Source of the DNA: Spirochaetota bacterium
GTDB lineage: Bacteria > Spirochaetota > UBA4802 > JAGODF01
Reading direction: 5' to 3'
Assembly (NCBI GenBank): GCA_029974015.1
Contig: JARKUF010000016.1
Span: forward strand, 26,886-90,885
Length of the DNA: 64,000 nucleotides
A program made the position numbers and the translations under genes. Of the stretch, positions 4,467 through 63,493 are shown piece by piece. Below the pieces are notes generated by a model, which was given only the letters and a program-made list of their open reading frames with translations, searched no databases and was not told where the DNA came from. Positions within the stretch are counted from its first letter, which is position 1, and each line of letters opens with the position of its first letter.

Positions 4467-5780
4467 TTGAATATGAAAATATTTAAGGGAATTGGGGCCT
4501 TGCTCTGTGCCGCGTCAATGGGCGGCAGTGTCATCGCTCAGGGTCTATCCTCGTCAATGGGTGGCATTACGACAGTTGTAAACGACGGACCAATGGATGC
4601 AATACGTAATCCGGCCCTCCTTGTCCGCGAAAAGAAGACAGCGGGAATTGGCCTGTCTTTGATGTACCGACCTTATGTATCTCAATCTCTGTCCGCGGAT
4701 ATGGATGTGCAATCTCCCTGGTTATCATTCGAGGACAAGGAGCTCTCTTTCGTTGATCCGGAATTATTTATGGCCCTTGGAGGCTGTGCGGCTTATTATA
4801 AAACAGACCGTCATTCAGTGGCGTTTTCTTTTTCCCAATCCCGGGAATCCGAAAGCGGGGGTTCTTTAATTAGATATGATGTCTCTCCCGCCTTTACTAC
4901 TATAAGATTTTTCTCGGACAAAGAGAGTACAACCTGGAAATCCGAGGGTTTCGTTAGTTATGGTTTTCGCGTAGGGGACGGGTTTTCAGTAGGAATTATG
5001 TTTCAACTGCAAAGAAAGGTTGAAAAATCCGGCGAAACGATTAAAAGCTATTTTGATACAACCTATGTCACATTTGAGAACAGGGGAAGGACGTCATTTA
5101 TTCACTCGTCTACCGTAAAGGCGGGCGCCCTCTATGTCGCGGGCAGATTTCAGGCAGGGCTCATTGCATCAGCCGGAGAGTACTCTTTTATGTTGACGGA
5201 TTATCGTGACATAAAAATCGATTACAGCGGGTCAGATAGTTATTACATTTCAGATACAACGTCGCTGACGAGGGCGTACAGTGCCGGCCCGGGAGGCCTT
5301 GCGGGAATTTCCTATGACCTGACGGGCGCTATCACGATTGCCGCTGAAGCGGGGGGAGTTTTCCCGGTTACCTATTCACGGTCAATGTTGTCGCCTTCAA
5401 CGGCGGGGTATTTCAAATTTGAAGAAGAGACGGAAAACTGTGGCGGTTTCTTTTTTGCCGCAGGCATGAAGTATACGGTGGACCACAGCCTTGCATTGGC
5501 ATGGGGCGCCCATGGGATGTTTTTCTCTTTCAAAACTAATGGGGAAACAAACACTTCTAAGGACGTATCCAATATGTCGATTAGTTATTTCAGTTTCAGG
5601 TTTGGTATTGAAAAAAGGATCGTAACGAATGGATATATTGCGCTTTTTACGGCCGCCGAATGCACCAGCATCGAGGTAAATTCTCACCAGGCCCATGGGG
5701 GAGGGCTAGAAATGAGATTTTCTTTAGCCCAGGCCCGGACGTATATTCTGGGCGGGTTGTCTTACATCCATTATTACTAA
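4467..5780 (+). CDS. Hypothetical outer-membrane beta-barrel protein
   Basis: Signal peptide (MKIFKGIGALLCAASMGGSVIAQG), alternating amphipathic beta-strand pattern, and a C-terminal aromatic end (...YIHYY) typical of outer-membrane proteins. Confidence 0.45.
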   Translation: MNMKIFKGIGALLCAASMGGSVIAQGLSSSMGGITTVVNDGPMDAIRNPALLVREKKTAGIGLSLMYRPYVSQSLSADMDVQSPWLSFEDKELSFVDPELFMALGGCAAYYKTDRHSVAFSFSQSRESESGGSLIRYDVSPAFTTIRFFSDKESTTWKSEGFVSYGFRVGDGFSVGIMFQLQRKVEKSGETIKSYFDTTYVTFENRGRTSFIHSSTVKAGALYVAGRFQAGLIASAGEYSFMLTDYRDIKIDYSGSDSYYISDTTSLTRAYSAGPGGLAGISYDLTGAITIAAEAGGVFPVTYSRSMLSPSTAGYFKFEEETENCGGFFFAAGMKYTVDHSLALAWGAHGMFFSFKTNGETNTSKDVSNMSISYFSFRFGIEKRIVTNGYIALFTAAECTSIEVNSHQAHGGGLEMRFSLAQARTYILGGLSYIHYY

Positions 5781-5795
5781 TTGGGACATGACTGT

Positions 5796-6737
5796 TTAGA
5801 GGTATTTGTTCACCCGCCGAAGAAAACATGCGTCGAAATTTTCGCACCTGGCGCAGTATTCGTCGTCTTCATTAAAATCCGCTTCTTCACAGATGCCATG
5901 TATATTGCCCTCTGTCATGATGCGGATGTAGTTTATGTACTGCACCTCATCGTCGTTAAGTGCGTCGGCGCCGTGCCTTTCAAGTTTTTTAAGTATTGCG
6001 ATCTTGTATTCCGTGTTCTTGTCGAAGTGTGTATTAGATTTTTCCTGGAGGGTCCTTTTGTGTTCATCGAGGTTTTTCATCAGCCTGTTTTGCATAATCT
6101 TTGTCTTGAACGAAATTGTATGTTTTCGGAAAATCAGGAAATAAACGAGGCCGAAAAAAAGCCCTCCTAAGTGTCCCAGATGGGAAATATTGCTAACGCC
6201 GCCCTGGAGCTCCAGGAAAAGCTCAAGGAGACCGTAAAGGACCACAAGATACTTTGCCTTAATGGGGAGGAAGAAAAACAGCAGAAGCTCCGCATTGGGA
6301 TACAATATGCCGAAGGCGAGCAGAAGGCCGAATACGGCCCCGGATGCGCCAATGGTTGGGATAAGCAAAAAAGGACTTTCCGGCCCATGGATTATCAGGC
6401 TGAAAACAAAGATGGTGATGCCGGCGCCTATGCCGGTGAAAAAATAGTAAAAGAGAAAGCGCCTGCTACCCCATTCCTGTTCGATGGGGATGCCGAAAAT
6501 AAGGACGGCATACATATTAAAAAGGATATGGGGAAAGTTCGCATGAAGGAACATATAGGACGCAAACTGCCACAGATAATGCTTTTCGATAATGGTATAA
6601 GGTTTTAAAGCGAAGTATTCAAGTATTATATCCATGCTTCCCATTGTTTGGAAGATGAAGATGATGATATTTACGACTATCAGTTTCATTACAAGCCCCT
6701 GATAGCCCCGCTGGTTTTCCATTTTCATTTTAGGCAA
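5796..6737 (-). CDS. Rhomboid-family intramembrane serine protease with a Cys-containing C-terminal cytoplasmic tail
   Basis: Rhomboid catalytic motifs GASGAVFGLL (Ser) and HLGHLGGL (His) in a polytopic membrane core. About 110 aa of tail carries CEEADF...EYCARCENFDAC. Confidence 0.75.
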   Translation of the reverse strand: MPKMKMENQRGYQGLVMKLIVVNIIIFIFQTMGSMDIILEYFALKPYTIIEKHYLWQFASYMFLHANFPHILFNMYAVLIFGIPIEQEWGSRRFLFYYFFTGIGAGITIFVFSLIIHGPESPFLLIPTIGASGAVFGLLLAFGILYPNAELLLFFFLPIKAKYLVVLYGLLELFLELQGGVSNISHLGHLGGLFFGLVYFLIFRKHTISFKTKIMQNRLMKNLDEHKRTLQEKSNTHFDKNTEYKIAILKKLERHGADALNDDEVQYINYIRIMTEGNIHGICEEADFNEDDEYCARCENFDACFLRRVNKYL

Positions 6738-6903
6738 CCTCTAATTAGGTTTTCCCGCCAGCCTTAGGCGGGCGGGAAAATTCAATACCGGCAACCTGTA
6801 ATTATGAGGTTTTTCCGCCCGTCTTCGGGGGGGGACCTCAGTGCATAGTGTGCCGGTAGTTGTAATTTATGGGAACCTTAAAATAATATTTTTTGATGTT
6901 CCC
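6733..6903 (+). repeat. MITE-like modular repeat, copy A (composite, with the left inverted repeat and hairpin modules duplicated in tandem)
   Basis: GGCAACCTCTAAT + hairpin AGGTTTTCCCGCCAGCCTTAGGCGGGCGGGAAAA, then a second GGCAACCTGTAAT + hairpin, then TGCCGGTAGTTGTAATTTATGGGAACC and the right end ...GATGTTCCC. Flanked by TTTA at 6729-6732 and 6904-6907. Confidence 0.7.
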
Positions 6904-6967
6904 TTTAGCCTATTCCATCATTGTTGATGAGTATTCCGAAACTACAGTTCGAAGGGGTAGCGTAAAG

Positions 6968-14711: not shown

Positions 14712-15070
14712 CCAGGTTGCGCTTTTTATTTCAGGGAATACCCTTGAAATGCTGCAACCGTTCATTCCCGCACATATCACGCCGGATAGAATGGTTCCAG
14801 CATCGTTTGATAAAGTTTTCAAAGATCCTTTCGCGAGTCCTTCGTTTCGCTCGGGTCTCGGCCCTTACGATGAAATTATCGTATAAATATTATGCGAAAT
14901 TAAAGGTGAATATCAGTAATAATCCATGTTTTAAGTCGTTTATTGATGGTAATGGTTCTTTTTCGGCATGATTTAGCTATTTTTCAGAATTTTTTGCAAA
15001 TTTGTCCTTAATCTTTATTTCGGCATATGAAATTTTTCCATGAGGAGTTTTTTTTAAAAAATCCATCAAA

Positions 15071-15126
15071 CTCTGGACTTATGTTTTCATGCCGTCTAAG
15101 GCGGGCGGGAAAACATAAGTCCAGAG
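15071..15126. repeat. Hairpin-module variant of the repeat family, with alternative 18-bp perfect inverted arms
   Basis: CTCTGGACTTATGTTTTC...GGCGGGCGGGAAAACATAAGTCCAGAG. It shares the GCGGGCGGGAAAA core with the other copies. Confidence 0.55.
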
Positions 15127-16462: not shown

Positions 16463-16586
16463 ACCGGGGTGGCGGCAGAACTCGGGCGGTAAAAAACAGA
16501 TATGTAGCTAAAAAATAAGTGACAGTTGGAGGCTCTCTTTATATGGTGCGGAACGATATTATTTAGATCAAAATGGCAAAATAAGC

Positions 16587-16632
16587 AATTATGTTTTCCC
16601 GCCCGCCTTAGGAGGGAGTGAAAACATAAATT
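16587..16632. repeat. Hairpin-only copy of the repeat family
   Basis: AATTATGTTTTCCCGCCCGCCTTAGGAGGGAGTGAAAACATAAATT. The ATGTTTTC/GAAAACAT arms are the same as in the copy at 15071. Confidence 0.5.
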
Positions 16633-16646
16633 TTCAAGGTAGCCTT

Positions 16647-20274: not shown

Positions 20275-22152
20275 ATGATGGCAGACCTGAAAAAACTATT
20301 GGATGCATACGAACTGGACGGAAAATCAATCTGCGCGATCGAATTACAAACCTACCGGAAGTACTGGGACCGCACGTCTTTTCTGACAAAAGAAAAGGGC
20401 GGTCTTCCGACTAGAAATTTTATCCCGGTGAAATCGAGCGAATTTATTGAACAACAGCTTTTAGTCGCCGCAGGCATGCTCGAAATAGGCGTTAGGAAAG
20501 GCGATTTTGTCGCCGTTTTTTCGCCGAACTCGCTCCGCCATGCCGTGGAAATCTACGCGATTATGTCGATCGGTGCGGTGTACGTTCCGATATATCCTTC
20601 TCTCCATGAAGACCTGGCGTGGAATCTCCTGACCCATTCCGGCGCCCGTGTAGTTTTTACCGGTTCTCTTGGGCAGTATCAGAAGGCGCTCCCCATGCTT
20701 AACCGCGTGAAAACTCCACTACGCAAACTTATTGTGGACTTTCCGGTGAATACGGAAGATCAAAATGTTCTCACCTACGAGGTGTTGATGCGGATGGGAG
20801 AGACTTCGAACAGAATTGAAGAAGTGCTAAAATCTGTTCAGAGTTTGAAGGAGAACGATTTGGCTGCCCTGGTGTACACGGCCGGAACCATGGGAATCGC
20901 AAAGGCGGTCATGTTGACTCACGGAAACTTCCTGGCCCAATCGCCTCTGGAGGACCTTTTCGACATAACCGCCGACGATACAAGACAGTCCCATCTTCCT
21001 TTTAGCCATGTCTTTGGGCTCTCTTCGGACCTCTTCGCTTCGGCGCTAATCGGTTCGAAAATGGCCATATCCCACACTTTCGACACTGAGGAAATTGTGA
21101 GCGATATATCTGAAATCAAACCCACGGTCATGTGTTCCGTCCCGAGAATGTACGAGAAACTGTACGTACATGTCCTCCAGGTGATTGAACAGTACGGCTC
21201 GTTTAAAAAGCTGCGCTACACCTTTGCCCTTAACGTAGCGAAAGAGTATTTTATGAGGAAGGTTTTCGGAAAACGAATACCTTTGTTTCTCCGCGCTATG
21301 AAGCTCCTTATGGCCCCCTTCTATTCGAAGGTGAGAAAAATCATCAGCATGGACAAGATGCGGATACTATTCTCTGGCGGAGGGCCGCTTTCCGTGGAGG
21401 TTGCTTATTTTTTCGGGGGCATAGGTCTGGAGATTCTTGAGGGATACGGCCTGACCGAAACCTCCCCGGTAATTAACGTCAATCTTCCGGGGAAAAGCAA
21501 GCCAGGCACCGTCGGCCCCCCCCTAAAGGGGGCCGAGGAAAAGATATCGGACGAGGGGGAAATACTTGTTAAAGGGCCCATGGTATGCCGGGGATACTAC
21601 AATTACTCGGGGGAGGACGCCAACGACTGTTTTACCAGCGACGGATTTTTCCGCACCGGCGATGTGGGGGTTTTCACCTCCGATGGTAATCTTATGATCA
21701 CGGGCCGACTGAAGGACCTCATCATTACCTCGGGAGGGAAGAACATAGCCCCCCTCCCCATTGAATCTTTGTTTACCGCGGATGAATTCATAGAAAACTT
21801 CTGCATTGTTGGAGACAAACGGAAATATCTTTCCGCCCTCGTGGTGCCAAATTTCGACAGACTTCGAGAATACGCCAGACAAAAAAACATAGAGTACGAA
21901 ACGAACGAGGACCTCGTTACCAACATTGAAATAATTGCTTTTTATCGAAAACGCATCGAGGACATCTCGGATACCCTGGCCAGGTTCGAACAGATAAAGA
22001 AATTCACCCTTCTGCCCCATAGTTTCTCAGTCGAAACGGGAGAGTTGACCCTGACCTACAAGTTCAAAAGAAGCGTTATTCAGGACAAGTACAAGGATCT
22101 GATTGATAAAATGTATCCCGAAAGCAGTCTTATGGCAACCCCAAAAAATTAG
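20275..22152 (+). CDS. Long-chain acyl-CoA synthetase (AMP-binding enzyme family)
   Basis: AMP-binding box LVYTAGTMGIAKAVMLTHGN, and GYGLTETS, TGDVG and GRLKDLIITSGGKNI motifs. Confidence 0.8.
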   Translation: MMADLKKLLDAYELDGKSICAIELQTYRKYWDRTSFLTKEKGGLPTRNFIPVKSSEFIEQQLLVAAGMLEIGVRKGDFVAVFSPNSLRHAVEIYAIMSIGAVYVPIYPSLHEDLAWNLLTHSGARVVFTGSLGQYQKALPMLNRVKTPLRKLIVDFPVNTEDQNVLTYEVLMRMGETSNRIEEVLKSVQSLKENDLAALVYTAGTMGIAKAVMLTHGNFLAQSPLEDLFDITADDTRQSHLPFSHVFGLSSDLFASALIGSKMAISHTFDTEEIVSDISEIKPTVMCSVPRMYEKLYVHVLQVIEQYGSFKKLRYTFALNVAKEYFMRKVFGKRIPLFLRAMKLLMAPFYSKVRKIISMDKMRILFSGGGPLSVEVAYFFGGIGLEILEGYGLTETSPVINVNLPGKSKPGTVGPPLKGAEEKISDEGEILVKGPMVCRGYYNYSGEDANDCFTSDGFFRTGDVGVFTSDGNLMITGRLKDLIITSGGKNIAPLPIESLFTADEFIENFCIVGDKRKYLSALVVPNFDRLREYARQKNIEYETNEDLVTNIEIIAFYRKRIEDISDTLARFEQIKKFTLLPHSFSVETGELTLTYKFKRSVIQDKYKDLIDKMYPESSLMATPKN

Positions 22153-22235
22153 GTTTTCCCGCCCCCCAAAGGCGGGTGGAAAAACCTAATTGCCGGGTTT
22201 GCCTGAGTAATAATTTATGCGAAACTAAAAAACTC
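22147..22235 (+). repeat. Truncated repeat copy (hairpin plus degenerate right modules) that overlaps the stop codon of the acyl-CoA synthetase gene
   Basis: AATTAGGTTTTCCCGCCCCCCAAAGGCGGGTGGAAAAACCTAATT, followed by a TGCC...TAATTTATGCGAAAC module. The TAG stop (22150-22152) lies inside the left arm. Confidence 0.55.
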
Positions 22236-22274
22236 AATTATGTGAGCTTCTCTTATAAATTAGTAGAGGTTTTC

Positions 22275-23769: not shown

Positions 23770-23848
23770 TCACCCCTAAGCCCCATATTTTTTCTAATTA
23801 TTTACCGCCTCAGGGTCGAATATTTAATGTAGACCCATGCTATCCTCA

Positions 23849-23968
23849 GGCAACCTCTAATTACCAGGTTTACCCGCCAGCCGGAGGCGGGCGGAAAAAA
23901 CCAATGTTGAGTTTGCCAGCAGTAACAATTTTTGGGAATCTTAAAAATTAAATTTTTTTGAGGTTCCC
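23849..23968 (+). repeat. MITE-like modular repeat, copy B (full length)
   Basis: GGCAACCTCTAATTACC + hairpin AGGTTTACCCGCCAGCCGGAGGCGGGCGGAAAAAACC + TTGCCAGCAGTAACAATTTTTGGGAATC + TTAAAAATTAAATTTTTTTGAGGTTCCC. CTCA abuts both ends (23845-23848 and 23969-23972). Confidence 0.7.
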
Positions 23969-23992
23969 CTCAGTTTATTCTATATCGGGAAC

Positions 23993-25941: not shown

Positions 25942-26994
25942 TCAGACAAGCATAATGATCACGAGCAGGCCAATTAAAAGGGCTCCTATTAGGAGCGCTA
26001 GATAGAGAAGACTCTGGCTGTCCTTTCCTGCTTTCACTTCCGCTGTCTGGACGGTTTCCATTTCTATCTTGACGTTTTCCTCCTCTACGATTTTCGCGAG
26101 GATGTTTTTTGCGACTACGCCGTAAATAGCGAATCCCCCTTCCCTGAGGGGGATTTTCGCTTTGACACGGGCCTTGACGGGGAGCATCTCACCGTCAGAG
26201 GTTAATGCCTTCTGGGCCGTCGCCACCTTAACTGCGATATCGTCGTTCTCATTTGTCAGAAGGACCTTCATCCTATCGCCGGGCAGGATGTCGTTTATGT
26301 ATTTTCCCTTCACGGGGGAAACGATGACGCGGCCGTCTACTATGTGCTCCGCCTCCTTCTCGATTTTGGCGATGAGTTTTTCCTCTTCCGATTCGGAAGA
26401 CGTGTCCTCGTCGACAGGTTTCTCTCTGGAGATCGGCACTGTTTCTGCAGGTATCCCCAAAAGCTCAAGTTGAAGGGAGCTTGTTTTCTCGAAATTGAGC
26501 TGGCACTGTGTTTCGTCACGTTGGTAGTATTTTTCAATTATCTCAACAAGAATGTCGGTTACAATTTCAATGTTATTGTCAACGATGTACTCGAATATGT
26601 CGTACCCTCCAAGGGAATCCGCCAGGTGGCGGGTGAATTCGTAGGATCCTCCGCTTCCGGAGCCGGGTTTCAATTCACTGCCGACATAATCCTTGAATTT
26701 TGAATAGAAAAATTTCCAACCATCGTTGATGGAAACCTTGTCGTGAATGGACTTCGTATCCGTAAGAAGTGAATTAATATTCATAATATAGTTGTGCTCA
26801 ATGTTGAAAAAGACGAGGAATACTCCGTAGGTGTGCCCTCCCGCAGAGAACCTGCCTTTGATGATGATGACGTCGTCAAGCTGGCCGTTGACCATCTGTT
26901 TTGCTTTTTCCACATCGCCTCCGGTGTATTTCATGGCGATGTTGATCTGTCTGGTTTTCTCCCCGAGAGAATCGTACTGGTTGGTTTCTGCCAT
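25942..26994 (-). CDS. Hypothetical tail-anchored membrane protein with an N-terminal UBA-like helical domain and an acidic linker
   Basis: A UBA-like N-terminal helical segment (...EKTRQINIAMKYTGGDVEKAKQMVNGQ...), a Glu/Asp/Ser-rich linker, and a single C-terminal transmembrane helix (LLYLALLIGALLIGLLVIIMLV). Translationally coupled to the upstream gene (2-nt gap). Confidence 0.35.
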   Translation of the reverse strand: MAETNQYDSLGEKTRQINIAMKYTGGDVEKAKQMVNGQLDDVIIIKGRFSAGGHTYGVFLVFFNIEHNYIMNINSLLTDTKSIHDKVSINDGWKFFYSKFKDYVGSELKPGSGSGGSYEFTRHLADSLGGYDIFEYIVDNNIEIVTDILVEIIEKYYQRDETQCQLNFEKTSSLQLELLGIPAETVPISREKPVDEDTSSESEEEKLIAKIEKEAEHIVDGRVIVSPVKGKYINDILPGDRMKVLLTNENDDIAVKVATAQKALTSDGEMLPVKARVKAKIPLREGGFAIYGVVAKNILAKIVEEENVKIEMETVQTAEVKAGKDSQSLLYLALLIGALLIGLLVIIMLV

Positions 26995-29408: not shown

Positions 29409-29472
29409 GAAAAGCTGTAATAATCACCCGGGATCACAAAAATTGTTGCAGTTGGTAACGTTTATTTATTAT

Positions 29473-29577
29473 GTCAACCACCTCCGCCTGGCGGAAAACT
29501 TTAGTGCTGAGACTGCGAGTAGTTACAATTTATGGGAATCTTGAAAATTCAATTTTTAGAGGTTCCCAGCTATAGGG
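29473..29577 (+). repeat. MITE-like repeat, copy C (degenerate left half, intact right modules)
   Basis: GTCAACCACCTCCGCCTGGCGGAAAAC... then CTGCGAGTAGTTACAATTTATGGGAATC + TTGAAAATTCAATTTTTAGAGGTTCCC. Confidence 0.55.
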
Positions 29578-29786: not shown

Positions 29787-29907
29787 GGCAACCTCTAATA
29801 TTTAGATACTCCCGCCCGCCGAAGTCGGTCGGGAATATCTAACTGCTGAATTTGCCGGTAGGTACATTCTTTGGGAAACTTAAAAATTTTAATTTTTAGA
29901 GGTTCCC
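29787..29907 (+). repeat. MITE-like modular repeat, copy D (full length), located in the bactofilin 5' leader
   Basis: GGCAACCTCTAATATTTAG + hairpin ATACTCCCGCCCGCCGAAGTCGGTCGGGAATAT + TGCCGGTAGGTACATTCTTTGGGAAAC + TTAAAAATTTTAATTTTTAGAGGTTCCC. It ends 15 nt before the bactofilin ATG. Confidence 0.7.
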
Positions 29908-31859: not shown

Positions 31860-31924
31860 CGGCTGAAGGTAAACTTTATTTGGTTTTATAGGATGCCTTC
31901 GGCGGGAAAGGAAAATTTCCAGCA

Positions 31925-32046
31925 GGCAACCTCTAATATTTACGATTATCCGCCCGCCCAAGGCTGACGGAAAATGTTAAATGCTGAGTTTGTCAGTAGT
32001 TGCGATTTATGGGGACCTAAAAAATTTAATTTTTTGAGGTTTCTCC
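31925..32046 (+). repeat. MITE-like modular repeat, copy E
   Basis: GGCAACCTCTAATATTTACG + ATTATCCGCCCGCCCAAGGCTGACGGAAAATG + TTTGTCAGTAGTTGCGATTTATGGGGACC + TAAAAAATTTAATTTTTTGAGGTTTCTCC. A hairpin fragment GGATGCCTTCGGCGGGAAAGG lies just upstream at 31891-31920. Confidence 0.65.
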
Positions 32047-35605: not shown

Positions 35606-36544
35606 GTGCGGATCACTGCGAACGTCGTGCAATTTTCGGAAAACGCATATGCCAAGGTCAATCTGCACCTTGAAATCCTCAACAGAAGACACGACGGGTA
35701 TCATAACATTTTCAGCCTCATGATATCAGTGGAGGAGAGTGATCTTTTAAAACTGGAAACTCTGGACGTGTACGACCGAGAAGGCCCAATAGAAGTCGAA
35801 ATAATTTCAGACGGGGGCAAGCACGAGTGGCTCCTGGCGACGATTCCAGTTTGGGACAACTTGATAACCCGGGCGGCAAGGGCGTATTTTAACAAGGCCG
35901 GAAAGTCGTGCAAAATTTCTCTTCACGTCGAGAAAAATATTCCCGCCGGGGGCGGCCTTGGCGGAGGCAGCAGCGATGCCGCAGCGATGCTCAGGCTCCT
36001 CAACTCTCAGCTCGATTATTACAGCAACGATGAGCTTATGAGACTGGCCGGAACTATCGGCGCCGATGTGCCGTACTGCCTGAGTGGAGGTTGCGCGATC
36101 TGCGAGGGCACGGGGAGCGAGGTTACGGTTCTCGACGGGGCCCTTGACTACTGGCTTCTCATTGCCAACAATAACGTGGCCGTCGATACCGGCGCCGCAT
36201 ACAGAGCTCTTGGCAGGAGCACCGAACACGACTCTGAGGCCGCGATGGCCGACCGGGCTGGTATAGACCAAAAGAAAATGCTTTTCGAGAAAGGTGTGGG
36301 CGCCAACGATCTCGGTGTTTTCAGGGCTGTCCTTAAAAATGATTTTGAACCTGTCATTTTTAAGGACCATCCTGAACTCGAAATGATAAAAAATTCGATG
36401 ATTGAGTACGGCGCCGATTACGCTGCGATGACCGGATCAGGCTCGAGCATAATCGGCGTTTTCAGGGATTACGATGTCGTTCGAGGCGCGGAAGCGAAGC
36501 TTGCGCCGTCCGCGGCGCAGCTTATTCTTACTCGGATAATTTAA
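35606..36544 (+). CDS. ispE: 4-diphosphocytidyl-2-C-methyl-D-erythritol kinase
   Basis: GHMP-kinase motif PAGGGLGGGSSDAAAML and the N-terminal KVNLHLEIL segment typical of IspE. Confidence 0.8.
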   Translation: MRITANVVQFSENAYAKVNLHLEILNRRHDGYHNIFSLMISVEESDLLKLETLDVYDREGPIEVEIISDGGKHEWLLATIPVWDNLITRAARAYFNKAGKSCKISLHVEKNIPAGGGLGGGSSDAAAMLRLLNSQLDYYSNDELMRLAGTIGADVPYCLSGGCAICEGTGSEVTVLDGALDYWLLIANNNVAVDTGAAYRALGRSTEHDSEAAMADRAGIDQKKMLFEKGVGANDLGVFRAVLKNDFEPVIFKDHPELEMIKNSMIEYGADYAAMTGSGSSIIGVFRDYDVVRGAEAKLAPSAAQLILTRII

Positions 36545-36664
36545 GGCAATCTCTAATAATTAGGTTTTTTCGTCCGCCGAAGCCGGGAGGAAAAACTTAA
36601 GCCCTGAGTATGCCAGCAGTTACAATTCATGAGAACTTCAAAAAATTATTTTTTAGAGGTTCCC
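36545..36664 (+). repeat. MITE-like modular repeat, copy F (full length), inserted between the ispE stop codon and tRNA-Gln
   Basis: GGCAATCTCTAATAATT + AGGTTTTTTCGTCCGCCGAAGCCGGGAGGAAAAACTT + ...TATGCCAGCAGTTACAATTCATGAGAAC + TTCAAAAAATTATTTTTTAGAGGTTCCC. TTAA abuts both ends (36541-36544, which includes the ispE TAA stop, and 36665-36668). Confidence 0.7.
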
Positions 36665-36687
36665 TTAAATAATTTAAAGGAGAATAT

Positions 36688-47495: not shown

Positions 47496-47590
47496 GGCAA
47501 CCTCTAATTATGATTTTCCGCCCGCCTTTGGCGGCCGGAAAAAGCTAATTATTCGAGTTTGCCAAATCTTAGTTTTTAAGGCTTCACTGA
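47496..47590 (+). repeat. MITE-like repeat, copy G (left inverted repeat and hairpin intact, right modules degenerate)
   Basis: GGCAACCTCTAATTATG + ATTTTCCGCCCGCCTTTGGCGGCCGGAAAAAGCT + ...GAGTTTGCCAAATCTTAGTTTTTAAGGCTTCAC. Confidence 0.6.
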
Positions 47591-53304: not shown

Positions 53305-53350
53305 TGGCCGTTCCGGTTGAATATATTAGCGCTAAAGCGTACAAGTTAAG

Positions 53351-53434
53351 GGCAACCTCCAATAATCAGGTTTTTCCTCCCGCCTTCCGCGGTCGTAAAA
53401 ACCTGACTGATTAATTTAATTTTTAGAGGTTGCC
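53351..53434 (+). repeat. MITE-like repeat, copy H1 (short form: left inverted repeat, hairpin, right inverted repeat, no middle module), with perfect terminal inverted repeats
   Basis: GGCAACCTCCAATAATC + AGGTTTTTCCTCCCGCCTTCCGCGGTCGTAAAAACCT + GACTGATTAATTTAATTTTTAGAGGTTGCC. TTAA at 53346-53349 (one extra G before the repeat) and at 53435-53438. Confidence 0.7.
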
Positions 53435-53499
53435 TTAATATTAAACAGCGACAGTTTGGTACATTGACCCGGCACTGCAAGAACAATTCTCTGTCAAAC

Positions 53500-53570
53500 T
53501 TATGGGGACCTTTTACTCAGGTTTTTCAGCCCGCCGGCGTCGGGCGGGAAAACCTGTGTGATTAATTTGC
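53500..53570 (+). repeat. MITE-like repeat, copy H2 (rearranged/truncated derivative adjacent to H1)
   Basis: ...TATGGGGACC-TTTTACTC-AGGTTTTTCAGCCCGCCGGCGTCGGGCGGGAAAACCT-GTGTGATTAATTTGCC. Confidence 0.55.
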
Positions 53571-53631
53571 CACGAAAGGCCTTCGCCAATTTTGCTAAAA
53601 GAAATGCAAAAATAGGCGAGTAAGCTCCAAT

Positions 53632-54687: not shown

Positions 54688-54751
54688 TGTTTTTCGTTTG
54701 GGGTTTCAGGTATTTAATCCTTGAGACATCATAATGTTGGCTTTGAATTGT

Positions 54752-54871
54752 GGCAACCTCTAATAATTAGGTTTTCCCGCCCGCCTTCGGCGGGCGGGAA
54801 AACCTAAGTCCTGAGTATGCCAGTAGTTACAATTTATGGGAACCTCAAAAATTTAATTTTTAGAGGTCCCC
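54752..54871 (+). repeat. MITE-like modular repeat, copy I (best-preserved full-length copy)
   Basis: GGCAACCTCTAATAATT + AGGTTTTCCCGCCCGCCTTCGGCGGGCGGGAAAACCT + AAGTCCTGAGTATGCCAGTAGTTACAATTTATGGGAACC + TCAAAAATTTAATTTTTAGAGGTCCCC. TTGT abuts both ends (54748-54751 and 54872-54875). Confidence 0.75.
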
Positions 54872-54943
54872 TTGTTCAAATAAAAAAAATGAGAGGTGGG
54901 GAACCTCTCAAGAAAGGGTAGTGTTTATGAAAGCGATAAATTT

Positions 54944-56135: not shown

Positions 56136-56220
56136 GATTGAGAAGATATTACTAGCGCAATTCGTTATCAAGAGGGGAGGATAAAAGAAAACCATTGCAG
56201 GGTTGAAGTTTATTAGAATA

Positions 56221-56335
56221 GGCGCCATATTTATTAGGTTTTCCCGCCTTTTCAGAGGGTGGGAAAACCCAAGTACCGCGTTTGCCAGAAGTTCCAATTT
56301 ATTGGAATCTTAATAATCTAATTCTTTGAGGTTCC
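56221..56335 (+). repeat. MITE-like repeat, copy J (degenerate)
   Basis: GGCGCCATATTTATT + AGGTTTTCCCGCCTTTTCAGAGGGTGGGAAAACCC + ...TTTGCCAGAAGTTCCAATTTATTGGAATC + TTAATAATCTAATTCTTTGAGGTTCC. Confidence 0.5.
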
Positions 56336-56367
56336 AAAAAGCTGTTTAATGGAAAAATTTTACCTGG

Positions 56368-63297: not shown

Positions 63298-63347
63298 ATC
63301 CCGCGCCATGGCCGAGTATGCGCAATATATTTTCTTTAATTTCAAGC

Positions 63348-63464
63348 GGCCTATAAAAATTTGGTTTTCCCGCCCGCCTTCGGCGTACTGGAAAACTAAA
63401 TTGCAGGGTCTGCCAGTAGTTACAATTTATGGGAACCATTAAAATTTAATTTTAAGAGGTTCCC
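63348..63464 (+). repeat. MITE-like repeat, copy K (degenerate left inverted repeat, intact middle and right modules) between rimP and nusA
   Basis: GGCCTATAAAAAT + TTGGTTTTCCCGCCCGCCTTCGGCGTACTGGAAAACTAAA + ...TCTGCCAGTAGTTACAATTTATGGGAACC + ATTAAAATTTAATTTTAAGAGGTTCCC. Confidence 0.6.
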
Positions 63465-63493
63465 TTCAAAGATTTAACCGGGAAGGGGTTGTC

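Follow-up and report, generated by a model that had tools for sequence, protein, structure and literature searches.

How did a short non-coding repeat come to be dispersed across a 64-kb stretch of a spirochaete genome? The window analysed here, i.e. the whole stretch of 64,000 nucleotides at positions 26,886 to 90,885 of contig JARKUF010000016.1 (GCA_029974015.1), comes from an uncultured member of the Spirochaetota and contains a family of 120-nt repeats. In the original prediction, made from the letters of the window alone, identical tetranucleotides were seen to abut both ends of several intact copies, and this was attributed to a transposase making 4-bp staggered cuts, with a preference for AT-rich targets. 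The results reported here favour this explanation. With a probability of roughly 85%, the repeat is a non-autonomous MITE (miniature inverted-repeat transposable element), mobilised in trans by a transposase of the DDE type whose staggered 4-bp cuts fall at AT-rich sites resembling TTAA.

Flanking tetranucleotides

The ends of the element were set at the best ungapped match to GGCAACCTC and GAGGTTCCC, ignoring the flanks. This gave 22 non-redundant two-ended copies, which are located in the window, in a locus 4.4 kb to the left of the window (L143), in the metagenome pattern-scan loci L120-L136, and in two loci (L077 and L108) of a Leptospirales metagenome-assembled genome (MAG). Identical 4-mers abut the two ends in 13 of the 22 copies, and identical 5-mers in none, which agrees with the 4-bp duplication length that had been proposed. 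Shifted registers yielded 0-1 matches, except for 3 at a symmetric shift of 8. When the left and right flanks of different copies were compared as a control, they agreed in 14 of 462 pairs (3.0%), and the binomial probability of 13/22 against this control is ~7e-15. The claim that flanks match above chance holds for the window and the metagenome and genome loci taken together.

The tetranucleotide differs between copies, as had been noticed, and at least 12 different sequences are duplicated. TTAA, seen in 4 of 15 duplications, is used more often than any other single target, T-T-A-A is the position-by-position consensus, and the duplicated 4-mers have a G+C content of 10% as against 37% in the next 20 flanking bases, so that the suggested preference for AT-rich targets is borne out. 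Beyond AT-richness, the insertion sites have nothing in common, and the duplicated 4-mers include some without TA (CTCA, TTGT, TTCA and TCAA). The metagenome copies obey the same rule (ATAT twice, CTAT, TCAA, AATA and TATT), on contigs differing widely in G+C; the copies of L120, L124 and L130 are nearly identical.

Within the window, the pair is present in 7 of the 10 two-ended copies, in copy H1 only with a 1-nt offset. All five pairs initially described (copies F, I, A, B and H1, including the extra G of H1) were recovered where they had been reported (Table 1). That list was incomplete, as the pairs of copies C22 (TTAT) and K63 (TTCA) had been missed, and it was correct in setting aside copies D29b (TAAT/TATT) and E31 (AGCA/CCGA), which have no pair.

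Empty sites and a nested insertion

The window is an exact match to contig JAPXOM010000014.1 (GCA_033811455.1) and to several Logan contigs, and the assemblies carrying the window proteins are identical to the window in the overlap, save for one mismatch in an 872-nt contig. Because these overlapping assemblies are near-identical, strain polymorphism could not be used. The best matches of the housekeeping proteins of the window are in MAGs labelled Spirochaetes or Spirochaetota, and the identity with the nearest relative is 85% for methionyl-tRNA synthetase (MetRS) and 57-80% for other proteins.

The closest available relative (L147; Joint Genome Institute samples 3300007351 and 3300007352) has the gene order of the window, dapB-rho-L31-sigma-HGD-D, and no copy of the element. 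Its sigma-to-HGD-D spacer aligns at the nucleotide level with that of the window, through the terminator hairpin of the sigma-factor gene and across the insertion point of copy I. If copy I and one TTGT are removed, the window sequence GAATTGTTCAAA aligns without gaps to GAATAGTTCAAA of the relative, with a score of 90, compared with 82 if both TTGT are kept and 81.5 if none is kept; the empty site holds a single near-identical 4-mer. A search for empty sites in relatives had been suggested as the way to check the prediction, and for copy I the outcome is an element-free locus, colinear with the window once the element and one tetranucleotide are taken away.

A precise paralogous empty site, with duplication of TTAA, is found in locus L136, where a 121-nt copy lies inside the TTAA of the A/T loop in the right module of another copy. 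Once the inner copy and one TTAA are taken out, the element that remains is 118 nt long and colinear with the consensus of the family over its entire length. For L120, the reconstructed empty site is CGACCATATGATATATAG, with a single ATAT. None of the metagenome loci is orthologous to the window.

Further empty spacers were found in the relatives. The holB-PSP1 spacer, which in the window measures 211 nt and contains copy E31, is down to 29 nt in one relative (L148) and to 15 nt in another (L150); the ispE-tRNA-Gln spacer, i.e. the site of copy F, is empty in L150 and L152; and the rluB-SPOR spacer, the site of copy B, is empty in L150, where it aligns on both sides and is too diverged for 4-nt resolution. 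No copy of the element was found over 43.5 kb of the relatives, and since the density in the window is about one copy per 4-5 kb, the expansion (burst) is specific to the lineage of the window.

Architecture of the element

A census based on a profile from three copies gave 10 full-length copies in the window, all on the + strand, together with five short or degenerate ones. Full copies measure 116-121 nt and short forms 35-85 nt, and no open reading frame (ORF) fits inside the element. The terminal inverted repeats are 12-17 nt long, the left one beginning GGCAACCTCTAAT... and the right one ending ...TTAGAGGTTCCC, and both ends, read inwards, are GG[CG]AACCTCTAA. The left module consists of the end repeat, a G+C-rich hairpin of 17-20 bp (positions 16-56, with a loop that is often TTCG or GAAG), and a degenerate inverted copy of the end repeat, GAGTATGCC (positions 59-70). 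A 16-nt linker carrying the near-invariant motif GCCAGTAGTTA leads to the right module (positions 87-120), which is made up of an end repeat, an A/T loop and an end repeat, so that this two-module architecture has four end-repeat-like sequences per element. The hairpin is retained across subfamilies through both-sided changes at 6 of the 12 predicted pairs. Folding of copy I as single-stranded DNA gave a minimum free energy of -37.6 kcal/mol, with a z-score of -9.6.

The short forms are single modules of the full element. The left module stands alone in G47, H2, c16 and L133:3114, always with non-matching flanks, and deletion, not transposition, may be the origin of such forms. In L108 the right module occurs by itself, as a mini-element of 35 nt with TAAA on both sides in the orientation used for the flank comparison. 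At gathering thresholds, Rfam recognized only the tRNA-Gln, and no family matched the element.

Proposed mechanism and search for the transposase

The end repeats and the fixed length of the duplication lead us to infer a DDE-type transposase acting in trans. Such an enzyme, encoded elsewhere, would bind the end repeats and make cuts staggered by 4 nt in targets that are AT-rich and TTAA-like; the element would then be joined to the cut target ends, and repair of the two 4-nt gaps would leave the same tetranucleotide on either side.

The genes called across the window all lack a transposase domain, just as the original prediction had stated, and no end-repeat pairs at the spacing of an insertion sequence (IS) were found in the window or in the metagenome loci. 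In the source genome, the search for an IS covered ~75 kb. Scans of viral contigs returned nothing or chance matches only, a plasmid BLAST search with the end repeat gave only chance-level matches, and literature searches for the end-repeat strings gave nothing relevant. A scan of a genome collection used the 14-mer GGCAACCTCTAATA, which is too short for a collection of 596 Gb, and returned 117 loci, mostly chance matches; by nhmmer and a search for paired end repeats, 8 of the 117 were found to hold real short elements. In one of the scan loci (L019) an IS5-like transposase gene adjoins the 14-mer, but there the 14-mer belongs to a terminator hairpin of the usual kind rather than to the end of an IS.

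Several observations weigh against a MITE moved by a DDE-type enzyme. The perfect pair is absent in 9 of the 22 copies; decay or neighbouring fragments account for some of these (E31, L121b) and not for others. Degenerate hairpin-like sequence of about 60 nt (31860-31924) lies just upstream of E31. The short left-module forms are without duplications. The window, ~200 kb of metagenome loci, viral contigs and plasmids all failed to yield an autonomous IS with these ends. The common orientation of all full copies, described below, is not predicted by a plain cut-and-paste DDE model. Finally, the empty site of copy F in L152 is 9 nt shorter than the window minus copy F and one TTAA.

This last point concerns the sequence ATAATTTAA, which at 36669-36677 (+ strand), beyond the right TTAA, is an exact second copy of 36536-36544. 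The window reads ...CGGATAATTTAA, then the element, then TTAAATAATTTAAAGGAG..., and L152 reads ...CGCATCATATAAAGGAG..., with one copy of ATCATATAA. Because of the second copy in the window, simple excision of copy F fails to regenerate the sequence of L152. The simplest reading would be that a 9-nt tandem duplication occurred in the AT-rich spacer, the element being inserted at the first TTAA.

Alternative explanations

The alternative that survives best, although we consider it improbable, is that the element spreads as single-stranded DNA through a tyrosine HUH enzyme, as a REP/BIME-like (RAYT) or IS200/IS605-derived unit inserted in one orientation at replication forks. All 11 full copies over ~72 kb (6733-63464 in the window, plus L143:18560-18672) are co-oriented regardless of the strand of the flanking genes, and the GC skew of the window (49% G+C) is positive in every 4-kb bin. 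The strong hairpins and the near-invariant linker motif, which contains GTAG, also recall such systems; REP/BIME units are palindromes of 20-40 nt with a GTAG head. On the other hand, HUH systems of both kinds make no target duplication and have no terminal inverted repeats, and IS200/IS605 elements have a single, unvarying tetra- or pentanucleotide as their target, present only at the left. Here the end repeats are clear, and the 4-mer varies between copies and is identical on both sides; REP/BIME and IS200/IS605 are excluded because of this variable, two-sided duplication and of the terminal inverted repeats. As to REP/BIME in particular, the GTAG-containing motif lies 3' of the palindrome. 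Moreover, five other loci show the reverse of the window's relation between element orientation and the sign of the local skew, and a link with replication is therefore only a lead, even though each of the multi-copy metagenome loci L126, L133 and L136 is internally co-oriented.

Less probable still is that the repeat mainly serves the host in regulation or structure, as a terminator, a promoter or an RNA-stability hairpin, was spread by recombination and is flanked by repeats only incidentally. It would account for copies that are always intergenic and abut gene ends, and for a G+C-rich hairpin conserved with compensatory changes. However, a promoter and terminator scan found no site recurring within the copies, the arrangement of T before and A after the hairpin is the reverse of that of an intrinsic terminator, the orientation of the element is independent of the direction of the flanking genes, and the relatives do without the element at these sites. 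Individual copies may have been co-opted by the host at a later stage.

We give very little weight to a site-specific (tyrosine or serine) recombinase, whose integration products also carry short flanking direct repeats, in this case the crossover core common to element and target: such a core must match the element and would hence be constant, in contrast with the at least 12 different 4-mers and with insertion sites that are alike only in AT-richness. Chance matching in AT-rich, low-complexity intergenic DNA, aided by a free choice of boundaries, might be invoked for flanks of 37% G+C and for the 1-nt offset of H1, but it is practically dismissed by the excess found with boundaries fixed from the end-repeat consensus, by its near disappearance in shifted registers (one symmetric shift aside), and by the two precise empty sites of copy I and L136.

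Comparison with known elements

The features of bacterial MITEs have been summarized by Delihas (2011; PMC3184786), with Nezha of Anabaena/Nostoc as an example, and every sequence-level feature given there is found in the element of the window. Like Nezha-type MITEs, it is shorter than 200 nt, non-coding and intergenic, has terminal inverted repeats, flanking direct repeats, a very stable fold and a high copy number, and its mobility is shown by filled versus empty orthologous sites. Nezha has ISNpu3 as its parent, whereas for the window element the searches above found no IS with matching ends, and the element has the two-module architecture described above. Its sequence is unrelated to any named MITE family checked. 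It is a bacterial genome parasite of an ordinary kind, but neither the family nor its transposase has been described before.

MITEs are reported to be abundant in Spirochaetes (PMC11602168). A further term of comparison is Chunjie of Geobacter uraniireducens (PMC3184786, citing Chen et al. 2008), which has a length of 178-235 nt, end repeats of 21 nt and 9-bp duplications. Chunjie shares with the window element an AT-rich target, a location between operon genes, a stable hairpin fold and some copies that overlap gene ends, and differs from it in the three dimensions just listed, which here are 120 nt, 12-17 nt and 4 bp.

As to the source of the transposase, IS701, the IS5 group and IS1380 are candidates only. 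IS701 elements are widespread across phyla, make a 'highly conserved' duplication of exactly 4 bp, and have ends of the form ---YACT-Y--YR (De Palmenaer et al. 2008, PMC2266710). The duplication length is that of our element, but the duplications of the latter vary between copies. The IS701 end consensus does not fit: in GGCAACCTCTAAT, position 4 is A and positions 6-7 are CC, and YACT is not obtained in any register. Moreover, no IS701 transposase was found near any of the copies.

The IS5 group makes 4-bp duplications at YTAR sites and, according to ISfinder summaries, has ends starting with GG or GA. The window element resembles it in the duplication length, in ends starting with GG and in a T-A-centred target with TTAA allowed. 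However, most of the observed 4-mers depart from YTAR, the end repeat does not evidently resemble GGAAGGTGCGAA, and the only IS5-like gene seen, the one in L019, is not bounded by the end repeat of the window element. PiggyBac elements duplicate 4 bp at a strict TTAA and have ends CCC...GGG, and the ends of the related IS1380 start with CC. Our element is like them in the 4-bp duplication and in having TTAA as the commonest target and consensus, but a piggyBac-like origin is contradicted by the degenerate target and by ends of the form GGC...CCC. IS200/IS605 palindromic elements are ruled out by the variability and two-sidedness of the flanking 4-mer. MITEs derived from IS630/Tc1-mariner (Correia- or RUP-like) duplicate the dinucleotide TA, and this origin does not agree with duplications of 4 nt, several of them without TA.

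A shared end repeat

The sequence GGCAACCTCTAATAAT and its inverted copy also end short elements with unrelated interiors in six further loci of the 14-mer scan, from other phylum-level groups (Table 1). The sources of these loci are an unclassified MAG and members of the Clostridiales, Oscillospiraceae, Omnitrophota and Planctomycetota. The number of end-repeat pairs expected by chance (at most two mismatches, within 4 kb, all loci) is about 1.5, and the observed pairs are all within 600 nt. This suggests that one conserved transposase lineage recognizes the GGCAACCTCTAATAAT end, which is 16 nt long and common to unrelated short elements in distant phyla, and serves many MITE families.

It is conceivable, if rather unlikely, that GGCAACCTCTAATAAT marks a widespread, previously unrecognized transposase lineage which mobilises unrelated short elements without cargo in five or more groups of phylum level (Spirochaetota, Bacillota, Omnitrophota, Planctomycetota and the unclassified MAG), with 4-bp duplications at TTAA-like sites and fork-oriented insertion or retention. 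An element that is strand-specific, makes duplications and has terminal inverted repeats would be out of the ordinary. Should the co-orientation extend genome-wide and flip at origin and terminus, it would link a duplication-making transposon to the direction of replication.

Copies in the window and their effects

The copies in the window all lie between genes or at gene ends. Copy I is the one nearest to the family consensus. In the composite copy A, a truncated left module at 6733-6789 precedes a full element at 6790-6903, the TTTA pair enclosing the whole, and H1 consists of the left end, the G+C-rich hairpin and the right end, with one extra G (53350) at the left junction.

Table 1. Positions of the element copies in the window and of GGCAACCTCTAATAAT-ended elements in other loci
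Feature	Form	Position	Strand	Flanking 4-mers
Copy F	full, 120 nt	36545..36664	+	TTAA at 36541-36544 and 36665-36668
Copy I	full, 120 nt	54752..54871	+	TTGT at 54748-54751 and 54872-54875
Copy A	composite	6733..6903	+	TTTA at 6729-6732 and 6904-6907
Copy C22	119 nt	22134..22252	+	TTAT at 22130-22133 and 22253-22256
Copy B	120 nt	23849..23968	+	CTCA at 23845-23848 and 23969-23972
Copy K63	120 nt, mutated left end AGCGGCC	63345..63464	+	TTCA at 63341-63344 and 63465-63468
Copy H1	short form, 84-85 nt	53350..53434	+	TTAA at 53346-53349 and 53435-53438
Copy D29b	full	29787..29907	+	TAAT/TATT, not identical
Copy D29a	5' end truncated or degenerate	29457..29567	+	
Copy E31	full	31925..32044	+	AGCA/CCGA, unrelated
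Copy J56	degenerate left end	56215..56336	+	AATA/AAAA
G47	left-module short form (GGCAACCTC, hairpin, GAGTTTGCC)	47496..47563	not assigned	no matching flanks
H2	left-module short form	53502..53572	not assigned	no matching flanks
c16	left-module short form	16574..16644	not assigned	no matching flanks
c15	hairpin-only relic, no recognisable terminal repeats	15067..15126	not assigned	
GGCAACCTCTAATAAT-ended element	176 nt	L068:3800-3975; L032 (rc 1349-1524)		
GGCAACCTCTAATAAT-ended element	130 nt	L025:3189-3318		
GGCAACCTCTAATAAT-ended element	80 nt	L075 (rc 4964-5043)		
GGCAACCTCTAATAAT-ended element	101 nt	L082:4092-4192 and 4579-4679		TTAA both sides
GGCAACCTCTAATAAT-ended element	63 nt	L114 (rc 5380-5442)		

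Two insertions alter the ends of genes. Copy F lies between ispE and the tRNA-Gln gene, and its left TTAA overlaps the TAA stop codon of ispE, which is thus contained in the duplicated 4-mer. The ORF of an AMP-binding enzyme (20275-22152) runs 19 nt into copy C22, so that its last six codons and its stop codon derive from the element; judging by hand from the reconstructed empty site, the original ORF would have ended a few codons past TTAT.

Three assemblies, i.e. an NCBI contig and two Logan contigs from different runs (L141, L144 and L145), end inside copy I, at window positions 54761, 54780 and 54838, which is to be expected where a repeat has many copies; in this organism, assemblies made from short reads are fragmented by the repeat. 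The family may amount to a few percent of the host genome. It adds to a poorly sampled spirochaete lineage a MITE family that is well documented, with precise empty sites and an exact 4-bp duplication.

Some minor observations concern the surroundings of individual copies. A terminator hairpin of the sigma-factor gene, GAGAGGTTCCCCACCTCTC (minus strand, 54893-54911), is located at a distance of 25 nt from copy I, and 10 nt of it (AGAGGTTCCC) match the end repeat of the element exactly. The terminator is also present in the element-free relative L147 (~4720-4740), and the match may be due to chance or may be a sequence that attracts the transposase. Among the metagenome loci, contigs from different samples (L120, L125, L128, L130 and L131) mix the flanks of separate insertions; in L128, for example, the left flank is that of L120 and the right flank that of L125, and ATAT is duplicated in both of these insertions. 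Such contigs are due either to chimeric assembly across the repeat or to copies having recombined.

In L126:730-1728 (the same region as L121 and L137), two co-oriented, near-identical copies 876 nt apart bracket a VapC-like PIN toxin gene and its antitoxin gene, in an arrangement that resembles a composite transposon, within a low-G+C patch with further small toxin-antitoxin-like genes. Lastly, L150, the relative with 75% MetRS identity, carries between the Metallophos gene and ispE (L150:12913-16044) an N6_N4_Mtase DNA methyltransferase and a HinfI-like restriction enzyme, where the window has a plain intergenic spacer.

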